A stretch of DNA of 64,000 nucleotides from Scenedesmus sp. PABB004 (taxonomy: Eukaryota): positions 310,001 to 374,000 of the forward strand of contig JABVCE010000004.1 in the NCBI GenBank assembly GCA_014905635.1, given 5' to 3'. Both the position numbers and the translations under genes were made by a program. Every line of letters begins with the position of its first letter. Position 1 is the stretch's first letter. The notes beneath the pieces were generated by a model. It was not told the origin of the DNA, searched no databases, and saw only the letters and a list, made by a program, of their open reading frames with translations. Below, piece by piece: positions 12,801 to 40,577 of the stretch.

Positions 12801-14788
12801 GGCGCGGCCGCGGGGCCGACGCAGCTAGCGGCAGCAAGCGCGGCGCGGGGCGCGAGCACCTGCACCACCGCGGCGAGCGCCGCCTCGAGCACCCACGCCG
12901 CCGGCAGCGCGTTGACGACCAGGGGGCCGTCGCCCCACGCCGCCAGGCCGGGCAGCATACCAGCCATGCCCAGCACCACCACCGGCGCGGCGAGCGCGCC
13001 GCCAACGACCAGCCGGCGCCGCCAGACCGCCGCCTCGCGCTCCATCGCGCCGCCGGGGCCGCCTGCAGCGCGCCGGCGAGCACCGGCGAGCGCCGGCGCC
13101 CGCCGCAGCGGTGAGCGCGCCGCGCCGCCGGGTTCGCGGCAGGCGCCCCCGCCGGCGCGCCGCGCGCCGCTCACCCGGCTCGCCGCCGGCAGGCGCGAGC
13201 GCCGCGTCAAAGCCGGCGTCCGCGATGGCGTCGAGGATGTCGCGCGGCCCCGTCGGGCCGGCAGGGTCGTAGCTCACGTCCGCCTGCTGAGTGAGCAGGC
13301 TCACAGACACCGACAGCACGCCGGGCAGCCGCCGCACCGCCGCCTCCACGCTCGCGACGCAGCTGGCGCAGCTCATGCCGCCGAGGCTGAGCGTCAGCGC
13401 CGCCGCCGTCGCCGCCTTGGCGCCGCCGCCTTGGCCGCCGCCTGGCAGGGCCGCGTCGACGCGCAGCAGGCGCGCCGGGTACCCCAGGTCGCCCGCGGCC
13501 TCGGCGACCGCCTCGGCGCTCGTCAGCGCCGGGTCGAAGGTCACGGCGAGGCTGCCGGTCAGCAGCGACGCGCTCGCGGCCGTGACGCCGCGCTGGCGCG
13601 CGAGCCCGCCCTCGAGCGCGGCGACGCAGCTGCCGCAGCTCATTCCGCTGACCTCGTACGTCGCTGTGGCGGCGGACGCCGCCTGCTTGGCCGCCGCCAC
13701 GGTGAGCGCCACGTGCGGCTGCGCCCCCGCCTGCGGCAGGCCTGGCAGCCCGAGCTGCCGCACGTCCGGCAGCAGCTGCTTGACCGGCGACGGCCTGCCC
13801 GGCGAGGGCAGGCCCCCCCTGCTGGGCACGCGCGCGAGCGCCGGCGCGTTGGCCAGCAGCGCGCCCAGCAGCGCCGCTGGGCTGCCGCCCGCTGCGGCGA
13901 GCTCGTCGTACAACGTCGCGCCGGGGCTGGCGGGGCCGCCGGGGCTGCCGACAAAGAGCTGCGGCCCCGGCTGGAAGGTGAAGCCCCGGGGCTCCAGCAC
14001 AGCCGCCACGCGCGGCTGCGCCGCCGCGGCCGCGGGGCGGGGCAGCAGCACCTCCAGGCCCGCCGTCACCCAGTCGAGCCGCACACCTGCGGGGCAGCGG
14101 TGCGCAGGGCTCGGCGCGCGCGGGGCAGATGGGGCAGACGGCAGGGCAGCCGCGCGCCCGCGGGGCTGGCGCCGCCACACCGCGCGCTCACCGATCACGC
14201 CCAGTGCCGCCTCCGGCGCGTGCAGGAGCGCCGCCGCCGCCGCGTGCGCGCCCGCCTCCATCGCCGCGCGGCTGGCGGCGCTGAAGCACAGCGCCGCGGC
14301 GGGCTGCGACAGCTGCTGCACGAGCGCGCCGGCCTGCGCCAGCGCCTCCGCGTCGTTGCAGGTGCAGCCGGCGCAGGTGCAGACACAGAGCGAGAGGACA
14401 GGCGTCGCGGCGCCGCGGACGAGGAGGTGGGAGCAGGTGCAGCCCGCGGCGGGGTCGCCCCGACAGCCGGAGCAGGGACAGGCCGCAGGTTGGTCAGCGG
14501 CGCCGCCGGCGCAGCAGCCGCCGCCGGCAGAGGCGCCGTCGCGCGGCAGCAGCGGCTCGTGCAGCTCCTCGCTGCCGTGTGCCGCTTCCCGCCTCCTGTG
14601 GCAGCGGGAGCGGCGGGCGGCGATCCGCGCCGTGCCGCTGGCGGCAGCGGCGGCAGCAGCGGCGCGTGCCGCGCTCCCGCCCGCGCCGCGCACCCGCCGC
14701 CGAAGCCCAGGCCCTGTTTGGCGCGCTGTGCGCCCGAGCCCTTGGCGCGGAGCTCGTCGTAGAGCGCGGCGGCCTTGGCCTCCTCCAT
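9845..14788 (-). CDS. Cu(+)-transporting P1B-1 ATPase (HMA5/RAN1/CTP-like), multi-exon
   Basis: Two HMA motifs (GMSCGSC, GMSCASC), VDESMLTGE, ACPCALGLATPT, DKTGTLT, SEHPL, MVGDGINDSPAL, YN and MAASS in the last TM helices. First exon 14788-14694 splices in frame to 14595. Confidence 0.93.
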
Positions 14789-15215
14789 GGCGGCGGCTCG
14801 ACCGCCGCTCGCGATGGCCGGCGCCGCTGCTGCCGCGGCGCCGCCTACGGCTGCCCGGGCATGGCGCCCGGCGCCTCGCCGCGAGCCCGCCTCACTGACT
14901 AATCAACCGCACGGGCGCGCGGCGACCGGGCGGGAGGGGCGCCGCACTTGCGCTGGAGGCGGCGGCGGGCGCGCGTGTGTGTACGGGACGTGGGCACAGC
15001 GTGGCGGCGGCTGTGTGGTGCGCTGGCGGAGCGCCCTGCCGTGTCCGGGCGCAGCGCGCCCCGGCGGCGTGGCTGGGCGCCACGCGCCGCAGGCCCTGGC
15101 ACACGCGGCGCGGCGCGGGGCGCGGGGCGTGCGGCGGCGCACGTGCGCAGCGCGCGCCGCGCAGGGCAGGAGCGCTGGAGCGTGAGCCCTCATCACACAG
15201 TCTGTGCGCCCCTCG
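14620..15215 (-). repeat. Copy A of a roughly 600-bp inverted duplication (promoter + exon 1 + intron donor); partner at about 33735-34345
   Basis: The reverse complement aligns with 33735-34345. Exon 1 is 93/95 nt identical and the flanks carry indels. Ends are approximate. Confidence 0.95.
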
Positions 15216-27097: not shown

Positions 27098-30886
<3,789 letters not shown>

Positions 30887-31173
30887 CTTGCGGACCCGGG
30901 GTGGCACCGCGGGGCGCGCCTGGTCACGGGAAGAGGCCGAGCGGGGCGGAGGGGCGCCGGCAAGCGGAGCAGCAGCAGCACGGCCTTGAACCCCTCAGAC
31001 CCAGCGCAGCGCAGGAGCCGATTCCGGGCCCCCCGCTCCGGCAGCAGCGCTGCACAGCTCCTGCACGACTCTCCAGCACCCAGCACGGCGCGGCGTAGTC
31101 GGCACGTCCCGCGCGCGGCGCGCCCAGCCCGTTGGCTCTCTCGCCGGGCTCTCGCAGCGGCCGCTCGGGCGCC

Positions 31174-31834
31174 ATGGCGCTGGCGCGGCGAGGGACCCGG
31201 CGCCTCTCCGCGCCCGCGGCCCCGCACCGCCCGTGCGCGCCGCGACGACGGAGCACGCGCGCCCCGGACGCGCGGGAGCGCGCCGCCGAGCTGGCTGGCG
31301 GCGCCTGGGCCGACGCGGCGCCGGCGGAGCAGCAGCGCCCGTCGCCGCCGCCGCGCGCGGGCGCCGAGCACCGCGGGCTGCTGCTGGAGGAGCGCCCGGT
31401 GTCAGGTGCGCGCGGCCGCGGCGGCGGGCGGCGCGTCGCCGCGCAACCGCCGGCGCGGCGCGGCGCGCGAGCAGCGCTGACGCGCCGCGACACCGCCGCG
31501 CGGCGCCGCACGCGCAGTCGCGGAGCTGGTCGACCACATCTGCGCCGACGGCCTCGCCGCCATCGCGGCGACGTGGGCGGCGCAGGGCCCGGCCGCGACG
31601 GCCGCGCAGCTGGGAGCGCGAGGCCGCCCCATAAAGTGGGCGTGCTCCCCGGCCTCGCTACCGCCGTGGGAGCGCCGGCCGGTGGTCTCAACACCGGCGG
31701 CTGGGGGGATGGGGGCTGCCGGGGCGCCCCGGGGGGCGCCCCGGCGCCGCGGGCGCGCGGCGCGCGTGCGCGGCGCTGCCACCGCCGCGCGCGCGCCGCC
31801 GCCGCCGCCAACACCGACCATGGGCATCCTCTGA
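31174..31834 (+). CDS. Short spliced ORF of unknown function, or a 5' gene fragment, divergent from RPS3
   Basis: GCCATGG start. Intron 31406-31517 has G|GTGCG, a CTGAC branch point and GCAG|, joining LLLEERPVS to VAELVDHICADGLAAIAATW in frame. The 3' part looks non-coding and stops inside the hairpin region. Confidence 0.35.
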
Positions 31835-32035
31835 TCGCCGGCCGCCTGAAACAGGCCACAGCGGCGTGAGGCATGACGGTTTGGGACCGGCCCGTCGGTC
31901 GGTGCCCCCGCGAAGAGGGGGTCCCCCCCACCCGGAACGGGTGACAAGGCGAGAAACGCACGCGCACACGCCTGACCTAACCTGGCAACACAACACAACA
32001 GCAAGAGGCCTTTTAACGTCCTGCCCAGGACGGAG
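31810..32035 (-). ncRNA. Candidate Fanzor omegaRNA scaffold (hairpin-dense non-coding segment)
   Basis: Lies just downstream of the Fanzor stop. Stems at 32017-32032, 31929-31943, 31905-31921, 31885-31900 and 31844-31856, plus an 8-bp long-range pairing 31812-31819/31897-31904. Strand and function are inferred. Confidence 0.5.
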
Positions 32036-32059
32036 AGCGCAGCGCACCGCACACGCCGC

Positions 32060-33414
32060 TCACGCCGGGGGGTCCACCGCGGCGGCGGCCGCCTGCCGGA
32101 ACGCGCCGGCGAGGCGCGCGCCGCCCGCCGTGCCGCGGCTGCCGCGCAGCAACTCGTGCAGCGTGAGCGCGCAGATGTTGCGCGCCGCGTTGTCGTCGCG
32201 CGGCGCGACGACCGTGCACCCGGGGCACTGCACCAGACCATAGATGCCCCGCAGCTTCTCCACGCGCGCCCCGCAGACAGAGCAGGTGACGCTCGTGCGG
32301 TGCTCGTCCATGAGCACCGCGGCGACGCGCCGGCGCGCGTAGTAGGTGCGCAGCAGCGCCAGCAGCGCCTGCCGCGGCGGCCCCGGCCCCGAGATGCAGC
32401 CCCCCATGCCCAGGCTGGCGTCCCCGATGCCCAGCACCACCGCGGGCAGGTCGGCGGGCAGGCGCGCGTGCTGCCGGACGCGCCCGCGCACAAAGACCCG
32501 GCCGTATGCAGTCAACTGAATCGCCGCATGCAGCGCGCGCTGCTTCAGCCCGTGCTTCCGCAGCCGCCACGCACACTCTGCACGGCACGCAAGCAAGCTA
32601 TATGCGAATGCATTGTTGAGCACATGATGCACCCGGCCGTTGCGCCACGCCCCGGCGGCGGCGACGCTCGTGCCCGAGTATGCAGGCACGCGGTTCAGGC
32701 AGGCATGCACGCAGTCGCCGCCGCCGGGCGGGCGGCGGTCGTACCGCCCCGGCCGCCCCGGCCGCCCCTGCTGCCACGGCCGGTGCCGCTCGATCCCGCG
32801 CGCGTCGCGGTGTGCGGCGGTCTTTATTCTAATGATGCGCTCCGCCTCGTAGCGGCGGCCGTGGTCGCCGCGGTGGCGCGGCGCGTTGGGGCAGCGCCGC
32901 TGCGCGATGCGGCGGTGCGCGACGCGCGTGCAGCCCGGGCCCTGCCGCCAAGTCGCGGCACAAACCATGCGGGCCCGGCCCGGGTCGACTCCGACGACGC
33001 GCACGCCCGCGTGCACGGCCGCGGCCGCGCCGCGCAGCGCGTGCCCCGGCGGCAGGCCCTCCACGCCGCGCAGCTCGCACGGGTCGAGCGGCAGCGCGTC
33101 GAGCGCCGCCTCGTCGGCCACGCCGTGCCCAGCTGCGGCGTCGCGGCCAGCTGCTCCTCTCCCAGGCGGTAGCAGGCGAGCTGGCGCAGCGCGCCGCGCA
33201 CGCCCGCGAGCGCGCCCGGCGCGCCCGGCGGCGCGCTCAGCGCCGCGAGCAGGCGCGCGAGCTCCGCGCCGTCGGCGCTCTGCGCCGGCAGGAGCACGAC
33301 GCCCGCGCAGTCGGCTATGCGCGCCTGGCGCTGCGCCGTCCGCCTGCGCGGCTGCTGCTGCTGCTGCTGCTGCTCCTGCGTCAGGGGGGCGAAGAAGGCC
33401 GTTATCTTCGCCAT
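32060..33414 (-). mobile_element. Fanzor (eukaryotic TnpB-like) RNA-guided nuclease gene; RuvC/Zn-finger half intact, N-terminus atypical and apparently frameshifted at 33121
   Basis: RuvC-I VVGVDPG (D at 32984-32986), VLGIGDA...GPGPP, RuvC-II VLMDEHRTSVTCSVC (E at 32303-32305), CPGC, RuvC-III RDDNAARNI (D at 32195-32197). Intronless and locally more AT-rich than host exons. Confidence 0.88.
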
Positions 33415-33734
33415 CGCGCCGCCGCCGCGACGCAGCTGCGCGCGCAGCGGCTGCAGCGCTTGAACGGCGAGCGGCCGGGTGCGGCGTGCGCGGCGCGTGC
33501 GGCGGTGCAGACAGCTGCCCGGGGCGCTCTGGCCAGCCCGGGGAGCCCGGGGGAGGAATGGACAGCGACGACGGCGCGGCTTGAGCCCCGCCGACGCCGT
33601 CGTCGTCGCAACCGCCCGCCGCCACCGCCGCCGCCGGCGCCATTGCCCCGCGCACCGCCACGCGCGCGTCACGCTCGTCGTCGCCGGGGCAGCAGCTCCC
33701 GACGCCCGACGCACCGCGCGAGAGGGCGCCCCTG

Positions 33735-34345
33735 GCGCGCGCAGGCTGTGTGATGACTGGCTGGCTCACGCTCCAGCGCTCCTGCCCTGCGCGGCGCGCG
33801 CTGCGCACGCGCGCCGCCGCACGCCCCGCGCCCCGCGCCGCGCCGCGTGTGCCAGGGCCTGCGGCGCCCTGCGCCCCGCCACGCCGCCGTGGCGCGCTGC
33901 GCCTGGACCGGGCAGGGCGCTCCATCAGAGCACCACACAGCCGCTACCAACGGTGTGCCCACGTCCCGTACGCACACGCGCCCCGCTGCCGCCGCCTCCT
34001 GCGCACGTGCGGCGCCCCCTCCCCGCCGCCCGCTGCCCGGTCGCCGCGCGCCCGTGCGGTTGATTCAGTGAGGATGGCTCGCGGCGAGGCGCCGGGCGCC
34101 ATGCCCGGGCAGCCGTAGGCGGCGCCGCGGCAGCAGCGGCGCCGGCGCCATCGCGAGCGGCGGTCGAGCCGGCGCCATGGAGGAGGCCAAGGCCGCCGCG
34201 CTCTACGACGAGCTCCGCGCCAAGGGCGCGGGCGCACAGCGCGCCAAGCAGGGCCTGGGCTTCGGCGGCGGGTGCGGGGCGCGGGCGGCGCCGCGCTGCT
34301 GCCGCCGCCGCTGCCGCCAGCGGCGGCGGCGCGGACCGCGCGCGG
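33735..34345 (+). repeat. Copy B of the inverted duplication (promoter + exon 1 of the PRP40C-like gene)
   Basis: Matches the reverse complement of 14620-15215, including MEEAKAAALYDELRAKG.GAQRAKQGLGFGG and the GG|GTGCG donor. Confidence 0.95.
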
Positions 34346-37300
34346 CCCAGGCAGCGGGCGCCCACGCCTGCTTACCGGCGCACCCGCCACCGCAGGGGCC
34401 AGCAAGCGCCGCCGCCCGCGCAGGCGCCGCCGCAAGGCGGGCCACCGCCGGGCAAGTGGGGACCGCCGCCGCCGGCGTCGGCGCCGCACTTCCACGCCGG
34501 GCCGCACCCTGGACCGCCCGGCTTCGCACACCCCGGCGCGCCCGGCTTCCCGCCGCACGGCGCGCCCGGCTTCCCGCCGCCGCCCATGGGCCACTACCCG
34601 CCCGGCGGCCCTCCGCGGGGGCCGTGGGGCCTGCCACCGCCGCCCGGCTACGGCGGCACGCCCGCACCCGGCTACGGCGGCGCGCCAGCTCCCGGCTACG
34701 GCGGTGCGCCACCTCCCGGCTACGGCGGCGCGCCGCCGTCGGCGCCGTACGGGGTGCGGCGCAGCGACCGGCCGCCCGCGCGCCCCGCCGCCGCCGCCCG
34801 CGCCGACGCCGCCGCCCGCCCGCGCCGACGCCGCCGCCCGCGCCGACGCCGCCGCCCGCCCGCGCCGCCGCCGGCGCCGACGCAGGCGCCGCCGCCGTTT
34901 GCGGCGCCGCGCGGCGCGGCGCTGCCGCCGCCGGCGGCGGGGCGGCCGCTGACGGAGGAGGAGCTCGAGCAGCGCGCGCTCGAGGAGCAGGCGGCGGCGA
35001 TCGAGGCCGACTTTGCCGCCGCCGACGCGGCGGCGGCGCGCGCCGCGGCCGCCGAGGAGGCGCGCGCGCGCGTGGCCGCCTGGGCGGCGCACAAGGCCGG
35101 CGACGGGCGCACCTACTACCACAACAGCCTGACCGGGGAGTCGAGCTGGACGCGGCCGGACGGCTTTGCCGGCGACGAGGCCGGCGCGGGCGGGCCGCCC
35201 GTGCCCGTCGCGCAGGCGCAGGTCGGCGACACGCGCTGGTTTGAGGTCAAGTGCGCCGACGGGCGGCGCTACTTTTTTAACCACGCCACGCAGGAGACGG
35301 CCTGGACCGCGCCGCCCGAGGTGGTGGAGGCCAAGGCGCGCCAGGCCGACGAGGCCGCGGCGGCCGAGGCGCGCGCGCACGCCGCCGCGGCGGAGCAGCG
35401 CGCGTTTGCGGCGCGCCAGATGCAGCAGGCGTCGGTCGCGGCGGCGGCCGCCGGAGGCGGCGGCGGCGCCGGCGGCGGCGCGGCGCCGTGGGCCGCCGCG
35501 CCGGTCGGCGCGGCCGCGGACGCGGTCCGCGCGATGCACATGCAGCGCATGGCCGCTGCGCGGCAGCAGGGTGGCGACGCCGGCCACCTCGACAAGGGCG
35601 CGCGCGTGCAGGTGCCGCGCGCCGCACGCCGCGCCGCGCCGAGCGTGCGCCGCGCCGCCGGCCGCGCGCGCGCCGCTCAGCGCCGCGCCGCGCCGCGCCG
35701 CGCCACGCGCCGCCAGGCCTTCAAGCGCCTGCTGAGCGAGGGCGGCGTCAACGCGTTCAGCCTCTACGCCAAGGCCAAGAAGACCCTCGAAAAGGACCCG
35801 CGCTGGAAGCTGCTGCCCAGCGACGGCGAGCGGCGCCTCGTCTTTGACGGTGCGCCGCCGCGCGCGCGCGCGCCGCGCGCGCCGCCGCCGCCGCGCCGGG
35901 CCAGGCGGGCGGCCCACTCGCGCGCGCGCCGCGCGGCCCGCGCCGCGCAGAGTTTTGCAAGAATGTGGCCGAGGAGCAGAAGGCCCTTGCCGCGGCGGCG
36001 GAGAAGCAGGCGGTGGAGGGCTTCAAGTGAGGCGTGGGCCTGGCTGCTGCCTGGACCTGCCAGCCCGCTGTGTGTCGCGCCGCAGCGCAGCCGGCCGCCC
36101 ACGCCCGCCCGCGCCCGCGCGCGCCCGCGCCGCGCAGGGCACTGCTGGAGGAGGCGCTGCAGCTGGAGCGCCAGCTGCACGTCGCGCTGCTCGCGGACGA
36201 GCAGGCGCAGGGCGCCGACGGCGCCAACGGCGAGGCCAGCGCGGGCGAGGAGGGCGCCGCGGACGGCGCCGACGGCCCAGGTGCGCGTTCGCGATGGGCC
36301 CGCCGACTGCGGCGGGCGCGGCGGCCGCTGCTGACGCGCGCCGCGCCCGTCGGCAGGCGGCGCCGCTGTGCCGGCGCCTGACGACGTGCCCGAGGAGGCG
36401 CTGGAGCTGAGCCTGGAGCAGCTGGAAAAGTACTGGTGAGCGAGGGGCGCGGCGGCGCACGCTTGCGGGGCCTGCTGGGCACAGCGCCCAGCGCGCCCGG
36501 CGCCGCGCCGCAGGTCCAACGACGAGCGCTGGGACGCGGCCACGGCCGAGCAGCGCGCTGCCCTCTTCCAGAAACGCTTCGGCGCGGCGGCCGCCGCCGC
36601 GGCGGAGCGGCGCGCGGCGCAGCGGCGCCAGCAGGAGGCGGACTTCCGCCGCCTGCTGGTCCACCTGGGCGTGCACGCGGACAGCAGCTGGCGCGGCGGC
36701 GTGCGCGACGCGGTGCGCGCCGCGGCCGCGGCGCACCAGAAGCAGTCGGCGAGCGGCGGCGGCGACGCCGGCCGGGCGGCACCGGACGCGGCGACCGCGG
36801 CGGCCGCGGCGGCGCTGGACGAGGCCGAGCGCGAGGCGCTGTTCCGGGCTGCCGTCGCGGAGCTCGCGGCCGCGCGCGACCGCGCGGCGGCGAGCGAGCG
36901 CGCCGAGGCGGCGCGCGCGGCGGCCGCCGCAGCGCGCATGGCCGAGCAGTCGGCGGAGGCCGACGCGCGGCAGCGCCGCGCCGCGCGCAGCGACGCGGCC
37001 GCCGCGTTCCGCACGCTGCTCGGCGAGACTGTTCGGAGCGAGGTCGGCGCCGACTGGGACGCGTGGCTGCCCAAGCTGCGCAAGGACCCGCTGGTGCGCG
37101 CACGCGCGCGCCGCGTCGGCGGCCCGCGCGGCTGGCGGGCCGCCCCGCCCGTGCGGCTGGCCCGCGCCCGCGCCGCCCGCGCCCACGCCGCCCGCGCCCG
37201 CGTCGCGCCGCACGTGCTGCGCAGAAGCGGGCCAGCAATGCGCTGCTGGGCGAGGGCGACATGGCGCGGCTGTTTGACGAGCATGTCGCCGCGCTGGCCA

Positions 37301-38224: not shown

Positions 38225-40577
38225 TCAGCTGCTGCCGCCGAGCTGCTGCAGCTTCTCGCTCGCGACGTGCGCGATGCTCTTGCCCTCCTTGGCCGCGACC
38301 GCCTCGAGCGCCTTGAACGTCTCCTCGTCGATCGACACCTGAGAGACGACGGCGCGGCGGCGCGGGGCCGTTGGTTGAGCAAGCGCGGGCGCGCGGGCGG
38401 TGGGCACCGGCGGCGGGCCGGGCGCGGGCCCGCTTTCAGCGCGCGCGCTGCCGGCCGCGCGGCGCGCGCGGCGCGCGCGGCGCCGCACCTGGGGCAGGCT
38501 GGTGAGGCGCTCGGCGGGCACGTAGGCGGCCGCGTACTCGCGCAGCGACGCAAAGCCGATGCGCGCGACAAAGTCGCCAAACGCCTCGCCGGGGCTGCGG
38601 CGCGCCTTGAACGCGGCGAGCAGCGGCTCCAGGCCCGCCTCAAGGTCACGCAGCTTCAGGCGCTCCTGGTAGACCTTGGCCAGGCGCGTCTGGTTGGGCG
38701 AGCCGCCGAGCCAGAGCTGCGCGGGCGCAAGCGCGCCGCGCGCGCGGCGCGGGCGGCGGCCGTGAGCGCGCGCGCGACGGCGCGCGGGCGCGGCCGGGCC
38801 CGGGCAGCCACGGGCGGGCGAACGGCCTGGCCCTGCTGGCCGGCCCCCACAGCCGCCCCTTGGGCGCCGCACCTGGTACGAGTTGGGGCCGTCGCCGACA
38901 AAGCCAACCTCGGCCATGTAGGGCCGCGCGCAGCCGTTGGGGCAGCCCGTCATGCGCAGCGTGATCGGCTCGCCGGAGAGGCCGAGGCGGTCGAGCAGCG
39001 CCTCGACGCGGCGGTTGACGTCCGGCAGGCCGCGCTCCGCCTCGCTGATCGCGAGCCCGCACAGCGGCAGCGCGGGGCAGGCCATGCTGAGGCGGTCGAT
39101 CGCGCCAAGGTCCACCACGTCCACCAGGCCCGCCGCCTGCGGGGCGGCGGCGCGGCGCGGAGAATTGTTGTTGTTTTTGTGTGTGTGTGGGGGGGGGGGG
39201 GGCGCAGCAGCGTGCAGCGCGCAGCGCGCAGCGCGCAGCACGCGGCGCGCGGCGCGCGGCGCGCGCACCTCGAGGCTGGCCTGCACGTCGTCGCGCCAGG
39301 CGGGCTCAATGTCGCGCAGTATGATGTTCTGGTTGGCCGTGAGCGTGACGGGCAGCGCGTAGCGCTCGATCACGCCCCGCAGCGCGACCTTGGCGGCGCC
39401 CTTGATGCGCCCGTTCTGCGCGCGAGCGGCGAGCGGCGGGCGGGCGGCCGGCCGGCGCCGGGGCGTGGGGCTCGTGCGGGGCGCGGCGCGGCGGCGGCGC
39501 CGCCGGCGGGCGGGCCCACAAACAAACAGACACACGCCCACAGACAAACAAGCACACGCGCCCACAAACAAACAAACAAACACACGCATGCGCCCACACA
39601 CCTGCACGTAGACGCCGTAGAAGAGCTTGCCGTCGCCCTGCTCGTGCCAGCCGAGGTAGTCCTCAAACCGCCACGCCGGCAGCGGGCGGAACGGCTCGAG
39701 GGCCTTGCCCAGGTACTGCTCGACCACGGAGCGGAACTTGGCGAGCCCCCACTCATGGATGAGGTACTTCAGCCGCGCCTGCGCGGGCAGCGGTGTGTGC
39801 GGGGCGGTGTGAGGGGCAGGGGGCAGGGCAGCGCGGGCAGCGGTGTGTGCGGGGCGGTGTGAGGGGCAGGGCGCAGGGCAGCGCGAGCGGCGGCGTGCGA
39901 GGCCCCGGCGGGGGTGTGAGCAACGGGGGTGTTGAGTGTGGGGGCGTGAGCGGCGGTGTGTGAGCCGGGAGGAGCTGGCGCGCGCGAGCCCAGCGGCGCT
40001 GGGGCGCGGCGCGCGCGGGGCGGCGCGCCTGCTTGCGGTCGTCGCGGCGGCCGTAGTCGCGCTGCGTCGCGACGATGGCCTTAATCGCGTGGAAGATGTC
40101 CTCCTTGTCCACGTAGCCCAGCGGGTCGGCGAGGCGCGGGAAGGTGTCCTCGTTCCTGCGCGCGCGCGCGTGGGTGCGTGTTGAGGTGGTCGGGGCGAGG
40201 GAGCGGTGGGGGCGGGCACGGGGCGCGGGCCGCGGCAGCGGCACGGGGCGCACGTGTGCGGAGGCGGCAGGCGGCGCCGCGCGCTGCGGCCGCGCCGCCG
40301 CCGCGCGCCGCGCTTGCCTGTGGGTGCGGCCCATGCCGCCGCCGACGAGGAGGTTGAAGCCCTGCAGCTGCCCCTCCGCGTCGCAGATCACGACGACGCC
40401 GATGTCGTTGGTGAAGATGTCGACGCTGTTGTCGCCCGGCACGGTGACGGCGACCTTGAACTTGCGGGGCAGGAACTGCGCGCCGTAGATCGGCTCCGGG
40501 CTGCCCTCAAAGTTGGTGCCAAAGCCGTTGAACGCGCGGTCGGCGGTGACCTTGGGGTTCTGGCGGGTGGGGCGCCG

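Follow-up and report, generated by a model that had tools for sequence, protein, structure and literature searches.

A RuvC and zinc-ribbon gene with a non-coding tail

In a 64-kb window of the Scenedesmus sp. PABB004 genome (64,000 nucleotides of contig JABVCE010000004.1; all positions refer to this window), we analyzed a minus-strand Fanzor-like gene and the hairpin-dense stretch on its 3′ side, which an earlier note made from the sequence alone had proposed as a candidate omegaRNA. The gene lies in an open reading frame (ORF) at positions 32060-33925, which ends in a TGA stop at 32060-62 and is coding only in part: by the GC content of codon positions, the frame ending at this stop is coding from about 33150 downwards. 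The encoded protein, P0002, carries the motifs VGVDPG, MDEHRTS, CxxC..CxxC and RDDNAARNI (Table 1). Moreover, the Fanzor/TnpB motif D-X(125,275)-[TS][TS]-X-X-C4 zinc finger-X(5,50)-RD, described for the C-terminal half of these proteins (Bao & Jurka 2013, PMC3627910), is present in P0002 as D55, T285 and S286, C289, C292, C308 and C311, and R317 and D318. Pfam PF07282 matches with an E-value of 5.2e-10 (39.8 bits against a cut-off of 26.3).

Among 1.84 billion protein cluster representatives, P0002 has 34 relatives at E ≤ 0.001, the best of them 37% identical (E 1.3e-18); all seven that we looked up are metagenome proteins without a name. An alignment with eleven relatives reveals common blocks (RRWRLRKH-like, GxGDAS, DExRTS, the zinc ribbon, RDxNAARNI and a terminal L..FRQ) and eight invariant columns, including D281, E282, T285 and three cysteines. 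The C-terminus ends as it does in the relatives, with L..FRQ followed by the stop, and positions 31810-32059 are therefore the true 3′ flank of the gene.

We modeled P0002 with AlphaFold, with a predicted local distance difference test score (pLDDT) of 63 and a predicted template modeling score (pTM) of 0.62. Structure comparisons with Foldseek place four chains of SpuFz1 (Spizellomyces Fanzor1) at the top, with E-values of 9.9e-8 to 1.3e-6 and TM scores on the query of 0.42-0.45, followed by Cas12f, PpFz, mimivirus Fanzor2, GtFz and TnpB. Among solved structures, mimivirus L79, a Fanzor2, is the nearest in sequence (E 0.0014), and bacterial TnpBs match P0002 over only about 60 C-terminal residues; a word-based protein search with residues 270-610 matched nothing. 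Sequence and predicted fold together mark the C-terminal 360 residues as a genuine RuvC plus zinc-ribbon module of the Fanzor1/TnpB type. The earlier note's naming of the upstream ORF as a Fanzor is thus borne out for the C-terminal half, by PF07282 and by SpuFz1 as the closest predicted fold.

The region ahead of the RuvC half is less readily recognized. A putative N-terminal coding segment lies in another frame, separated from the RuvC half by a one-base slip at a G-run (33128-33130) that may reflect either a true mutation or misassembly of the homopolymer; by eye, we found no in-phase GT..AG intron that joins the two frames. About 145 residues lie ahead of RuvC-I, split over these frames. 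In a tblastn search with the 34 relatives, 29 match the window, all of them within 32111-32992. A profile of the N-termini of four relatives had no match at the locus, its best match in the window (E 0.21) lying at another site, hhalign of the N-terminal segment against the relatives' N-termini gave a probability of 0.3%, and a Pfam search with this segment returned only a sub-threshold DUF. In solved Fanzor1 complexes, the WED and REC domains grip the first eight nucleotides of the guide (Xu 2024, PMC11423790). Because Fanzor N-termini are highly variable (Bao & Jurka 2013, PMC3627910), the missing similarity is not proof of loss.

Table 1. Features of the Fanzor-like locus and of neighboring genes in the 64-kb window.
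Feature	Position	Strand	Remarks
3′ non-coding tail, candidate omegaRNA/element-end module	31810..32059	minus	five or six short hairpins; directly after stop 32060-62
Stem CGTCCT/AGGACG	32017-32032
Stem CACCCG/CGGGTG	31929-31943		7 bp with G-U pair at 31928-31944
Hairpin CCCCC-GCGAAGA-GGGGG	31905-31921
Stem GACCG/CGGTC	31885-31900
Alternative stem GGGACC/GGTCCC	31883-88/31920-25
GCCTG/CAGGC nested in CGCCG/CGGCG	31836-31866
Long-range match CACCGACC/GGTCGGTG	31812-19/31897-904		extends to 15-nt arms 31811-25/31890-904 with one bulge
Predicted multibranch domain	31811..31904		closed by the 15-nt arms 31811-25/31890-904
Metatranscriptome contigs, run X14	31838-32022 and 31993-32099
Metatranscriptome contigs, run X16	31864-31957 and 31928-32018
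RuvC-I/RuvC-II/zinc ribbon/RuvC-III half (P0002)	32060..33148	minus	362 aa, complete C-terminus; periodicity of GC at third codon positions (GC3), PF07282, relatives, fold
Putative N-terminal coding segment (MAKITAFF...)	33130..33414, ATG 33414	minus	other frame than RuvC half; GC3 up to 0.98
Low-complexity flank, would-be guide/target side	31690..31809		(GGC)n and GC palindromes, 92% GC; length varies between strains
14-nt word GCGGCGGCGGCGCG	31792..31805 and 33415-33428	minus	second copy directly before ATG 33414
Ribosomal protein S3 gene	~30868 (start) to ~28950 (stop)	minus	KH_2 E 2.5e-10, Ribosomal_S3_C E 2.1e-14
Nitrite/sulfite reductase gene	intron at ~39483-39600		Pfam NIR_SIR E 8.6e-10; GT..AG intron

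Hairpins and base composition of the tail

The tail adjoins the ORF on its 3′ side, as the earlier note had it, starting right after the TGA, and shows no codon periodicity. Reading base by base, we found every stem that the note had listed where it had placed it (Table 1). We counted perfect hairpins (stem of at least 5, loop of 3-8) against dinucleotide shuffles, and found eight in the tail against a shuffle mean of 1.81, with 3 of 1000 shuffles reaching eight. Since two hairpins are counted at two loop sizes, the eight correspond to six distinct hairpins. A candidate pseudoknot, in which 31812-19/31897-904 crosses 31883-88/31920-25, is geometrically possible and gained no positive support; its arms are untouched by the allele differences described below.

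The earlier note had also argued that a base composition more balanced than the background makes the stems less likely to be GC noise. The tail indeed has a GC content of 0.668, against 0.73-0.85 per kb in a window whose background is about 80%, but this composition is not special because the window holds 46 islands below 66% GC. Third codon positions in the window reach 0.98 GC, and non-coding islands fall to 53-66%.

The tail matches no unrelated RNA family in Rfam, a match the earlier note had named as a way to refute its candidate. An E-value scan of 30500-35000 returned only SNORA43 (33332-33416, E 0.58, 21 bits against a gathering score of 80), and at gathering thresholds the whole window gave no match.

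RNA contigs cover the tail

We examined public sequencing runs that contain parts of the locus. There are 17 such runs from 10 studies, mostly labeled as freshwater metagenomes, and the best of them contains 0.39 of the locus words. In two metatranscriptome runs, X14 and X16, RNA contigs jointly span 31838-32099. These are the sole long pieces on 31200-34200 in either run, all other pieces being GC-rich repeats of 27 nt or shorter. An ORF part of equal GC (32500-32699, GC 0.66) has DNA contigs and no RNA contigs, so that GC bias or DNA carry-over alone is insufficient to account for the RNA cover; we partly reject this explanation, the depth being too low for certainty. The pattern suggests that RNA over the tail is more abundant than the body of the mRNA.

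Alleles of the locus in public runs

Two runs contain DNA contigs of other alleles. A contig of run X1 (31876-32776) is collinear with the window, with nine substitutions and five gap letters, and contigs of run X5 provide collinear pieces from 31640 to 32714; another X5 contig skips 31732-31800, a difference in flank length. We disregarded joints between contig pieces that skip 1-2 kb as cross-matches, since their sides are 20-24 nt in (GGC)n. Within the ORF, the alleles differ at ten distinct codons, six silent and four replacing (X1, four silent and two replacing; X5, four and three; three codons common to both), a pattern that leans toward constraint.

The tail shows 14 allele differences, 11 of them outside the listed stems. 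In the C5/G5 hairpin, changes at 31909 and 31917 shorten both arms together; across X1, X5, X14 and X16, the gaps in this hairpin fall at 31909, at 31912-14 or 31914-17, and at 31917. Its loop is GCGA in all other alleles, on stems of 4-5 bp, versus GCGAAGA here. The multibranch domain at 31811-31904 is predicted in seven of eight allele-by-strand folds, and the middle of the tail refolds differently each time. Overall, the differences are compatible with structure; the pattern is not significant, and palindromes are also mutation-prone.

A candidate omegaRNA region by descent

Our favored, if tentative, reading is that the tail is the 3′ end module of a single immobilized Fanzor1-type element, an omegaRNA region by descent whose present activity is doubtful. 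In this model, a Fanzor1-type element would have lodged between host genes of a GC-rich, green-alga-like eukaryote, with the tail as its transcribed non-coding 3′ end module. A minus-strand RNA would start in the last ~40 nt of the ORF, pass the series of short hairpins and end near 31810, with the flank beyond serving as the guide. The protein family, the position of the tail, its cover in RNA libraries and the presence of the hairpins are observed directly; we infer the strand and ends of the RNA, any binding to the protein, and the boundary at 31810.

In the Fanzors studied so far, the omegaRNA is located between, or over, the stop codon and the right end of the element (Saito 2023, PMC10432273), and the position of the tail matches this site. 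RNA cover and hairpin count lean toward an omegaRNA region, and a guide-RNA role of the tail is plausible, though unproven. The allele differences, most of which lie in predicted loops, also speak for this reading, as does the retention of the 3′ end in green-algal Fanzor1 elements, many of which are truncated on the 5′ side (Bao & Jurka 2013, PMC3627910). The earlier proposal of a candidate omegaRNA therefore holds with respect to protein family, position, RNA contigs over 31838-32099 and the lack of an unrelated Rfam family, and finds no backing in the folding energies.

Fold statistics, near-neutral divergence, a single fixed copy, a microsatellite guide and an impaired-looking protein lean against this model as a description of a working system. 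In the comparison with dinucleotide shuffles that the earlier note had itself proposed, the whole tail folds no better than its shuffles, an outcome which that note had listed among those that would refute its candidate. On the minus strand, the minimum free energy is -115.7 kcal/mol against -113.1 +/- 5.3 in shuffles (z -0.50), with 60 of 200 shuffles folding as well; on the plus strand, it is -97.3 kcal/mol against -92.9 +/- 4.8 (z -0.92), with 35 of 200 folding as well. In 120-nt sliding windows, the best value in the tail is z -2.0, for 31810-31929 on the plus strand, where the minus strand gives -0.74. Outside the tail, GC palindromes of the GGGGCGCCCC type at 31630-31779 fold better than shuffles on both strands, with z values of -2.3 to -4.1 for windows of 120 nt. 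The hairpin count, enriched as it is against shuffles, lifts the stems only partly above GC noise: 5.7% of 283 tiles of the window are equally rich (p ≤ 0.01 against their own shuffles), and 2 of 23 low-GC tiles are hairpin-enriched, the tail being one. The other such tile, 2713-2938, holds 12 hairpins against 2.7, a count reached by 0 of 100 shuffles.

The RNA contigs have a depth of 2-4, come from two runs of one study and are unstranded, and their ends are not RNA ends. The implied RNA of ~290 nt would exceed the 75-150 nt of Fz1 omegaRNAs (Xu 2024, PMC11423790). Among the alleles, the tail diverges by about 1-3% plus indels, similar to or above the ORF, and a change at 31896 breaks the closing pair of GACCG/CGGTC. 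An X5 DNA contig (31766-31859) crosses 31810 collinearly; these sequences are therefore alleles of one locus and not transposed copies. In the main X5 allele, 32098-32199 (102 bases) is replaced by nine bases in frame, across a joint whose short side is only 30 nt; by codon reading, this allele would lack the RuvC-III motif RDDNAARNI, a loss that is unconfirmed. Together with the frame slip and the absence of a recognizable WED or REC domain, this makes the partner protein look impaired. Two points make it doubtful that a guide RNA works here today: the N-terminal part of the protein is short, unrecognizable and in another frame, and the tail changes at roughly the rate of silent sites.

Searches for further copies and for element ends add to the same side. 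Self-BLAST of the window detected no second copy of the tail or gene, only GC-rich low complexity and an inverted repeat at 33734-34339 and 15212-14620; tblastn of the window with the ORF returned only the ORF itself, and the long-range stem arm has no other copy in the window. We found no conserved boundary at the element end, and a search for terminal inverted repeats pairing the tail with the 5′ side of the gene yielded only GC-rich low complexity. What would serve as the guide is (GGC)n, a microsatellite repeat found all over the genome. Beyond the window, a 20-mer scan of metagenome contigs matched 26 loci with a GC content of 0.39-0.66, which we attribute to chance because none is alike beyond the word itself. 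Pattern scans of genomes and viruses for tail copies gave no match; protein-led scans of the same kind found one distant viral TnpB and nine bacterial TnpBs over about 60 residues, and no copy; and protein queries P0003 and P0010 found nothing in viral contigs.

Alternative explanations for the tail

The tail may instead be a plain 3′ untranslated region (UTR) or a convergent intergenic spacer, with a low GC content (60-67%) usual for non-coding DNA here and hairpins that arose by chance. We consider this nearly as likely as the element-end reading. Its case rests on the 46 low-GC islands, on the intron of the reductase gene, which resembles the tail in composition and has the same T-poor plus strand, on a sense strand as G+U-rich as in the 3′ UTR of the S3 gene, on fold z values of only -0.5 and -0.9, and on a substitution rate that looks neutral. 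A polyadenylation signal would be expected for a 3′ UTR, and in chlorophytes this signal is TGTAA. Ten TGTAA occurrences lie in the window, several of them just after genes and one at 28855, past the stop of the S3 gene, but there is none on either strand within 31500-32100. Moreover, the hairpin count of the tail falls within the top ~6% of tiles, and RNA contigs lie over the tail and not over the ORF.

Alternatively, the hairpins might act as DNA, as the 3′ subterminal hairpins of a Helitron2-type carrier in a 5′-truncated insertion reaching from ~33414 to 31806. In Chlamydomonas, Fanzor1 genes are carried in Helitron2 elements with terminal hairpins and 7-19 bp duplications; the 3′ subterminal hairpin of such carriers lies within ~20-30 bp of the end, and green-algal Fanzor1 elements are often 5′-truncated with their 3′ ends kept (Bao & Jurka 2013, PMC3627910). 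Here, the N-terminal Fanzor part is not recognizable, the stems are equally good on both strands, and the 14-nt word GCGGCGGCGGCGCG, which begins 4 nt past the tail, flanks 33414..31806 as a direct repeat. This word pair may be a target-site duplication or chance. We give it little weight because the word, a common microsatellite word, occurs 24 times in the 64 kb; among 60-nt window pairs at that spacing, 0.4% share a 14-mer (1.0% when matched for GC), figures uncorrected for the freedom in placing the 5′ boundary. The 5′ repeat copy is preceded by the four nucleotides CGTC, which are not rich in T, about 26 nt separate the boundary from the last hairpin, whose end is at 31836, and we saw neither Helitron-like copies nor a RepHel gene in the window. 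Overall, we find a Helitron2-type origin of the hairpins quite unlikely.

An improbable third explanation is a plus-strand RNA, either the 3′ UTR of a small gene convergent with the Fanzor-like gene or an antisense transcript. A possible plus-strand gene occupies 31160-31834: its ORF starts with a transit-peptide-like MALARRGTRRLSAP, a GTGAGC donor lies near 31405 with a frame change after it, and a frame ends at the TGA at 31832-34. This stop lies 4 nt before the leftmost RNA contig, codon periodicity extends over 31200-31680, the loops read GCGA, GAA and AAA on the plus strand, and the best local z in the tail (-2.0) is on that strand. The periodicity is weak, however (spread 0.15-0.23), Pfam has no match for the ORF, and there is no plus-strand TGTAA. 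No RNA contig lies on the ORF itself, although its GC content of 84-92% could explain their absence.

An intron in the tail, from GTGAGC at 32063 to CAG at 31845 on the minus strand or from GTGAGG at 31867 to CAG at 32028 on the plus strand, is hardly credible: despite splice-like motifs on both strands and a composition like that of the reductase intron, the protein end already matches the relatives, the downstream frame lacks a coding signal, and the RNA contig at 31993-32099 spans the putative minus-strand donor unspliced.

Comparison with known systems

The closest comparison for the candidate omegaRNA region is with the Fz1 omegaRNAs of Spizellomyces punctatus, Guillardia theta and Parasitella parasitica (PMC10432273, PMC11423790), which likewise lie on the non-coding 3′ side of a Fanzor1-like RuvC/TNB gene. 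Stem-loops are present and RNA is detected in both cases, and the GtFz1 omegaRNA overlaps its ORF by 17 aa, just as the tail RNA possibly begins in the last codons. The known scaffolds, however, are 75-150 nt in length, span a conserved inverted repeat, exist in many copies and are followed by a variable guide of 14-15 nt, whereas here we find a single copy, no inverted repeat, an RNA of ~250-290 nt, no fold signal and no recognizable WED or REC domain. SL1 measures 7 bp in three solved Fz1 complexes, and the tail hairpins measure 5-6 bp.

The CRe-1/2/3 elements of Chlamydomonas reinhardtii (Bao & Jurka 2013, PMC3627910), which we compared by description, resemble this locus in several ways: the host is green-alga-like, the gene is Fanzor1-like, hairpins lie at the 3′ end, the 5′ part is apparently lost while the 3′ end is intact, and a duplication of a length in the 7-19 bp range may flank the element. 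The CRe elements are multi-copy and multi-exon and are inserted after T-rich tetranucleotides, none of which is shown here. The omegaRNA (reRNA) of the ISDra2 TnpB, an IS200/IS605 system, is similar in that a guide RNA derives from the 3′ end of the nuclease gene and the right end of the element, with the flank as guide; that system is bacterial, with a known TAM and right-end boundary, and the protein here matches bacterial TnpBs over only ~60 C-terminal residues.

Fanzors in green algae are already in print (Bao & Jurka 2013, PMC3627910; Auxenochlorella preprint PMC12633428). If the tail encodes a guide RNA, it would add a Fanzor1 lineage of green-alga type, with a protein 37% identical to its nearest library relative, a scaffold longer than any solved Fz1 omegaRNA, and a copy apparently fixed in the host rather than mobile. 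A host-fixed (domesticated) Fanzor1, single-copy and retained at one site in several wild freshwater populations, with an intact catalytic triad and mostly silent changes, whose unusually long guide RNA of ~260-290 nt would derive from its own 3′ tail, outnumber its mRNA and carry a (GGC)n guide, is very improbable; such a protein would have a cellular role at GC-rich repeats rather than in transposon homing. In excerpts of the literature on Fanzor with domestication or Chlorophyta, we found no report of a host-fixed eukaryotic Fanzor, which is not proof of absence. If, on the other hand, the tail encodes no guide RNA, it counsels caution: chains of 5-6 bp hairpins beside a nuclease gene are common in a genome of 80% GC, and would weigh little without copies or stranded RNA data.

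Neighboring genes

Downstream of the Fanzor-like gene is the ribosomal protein S3 gene, and upstream of it is a WW/FF-domain gene. The latter is on the plus strand and starts at 34177; its upstream region and first coding exon (MEEAKAAALYDELRAKG...) fall within 33734-34339, which is duplicated in inverted orientation at 14620-15212 over ~600 bp with 89% identity. We considered this repeat as a copy of the Fanzor-like gene and rejected it, since it is a paralogous promoter-plus-exon copy of a host gene. The duplication also limits the upstream reach of the Fanzor-like gene.

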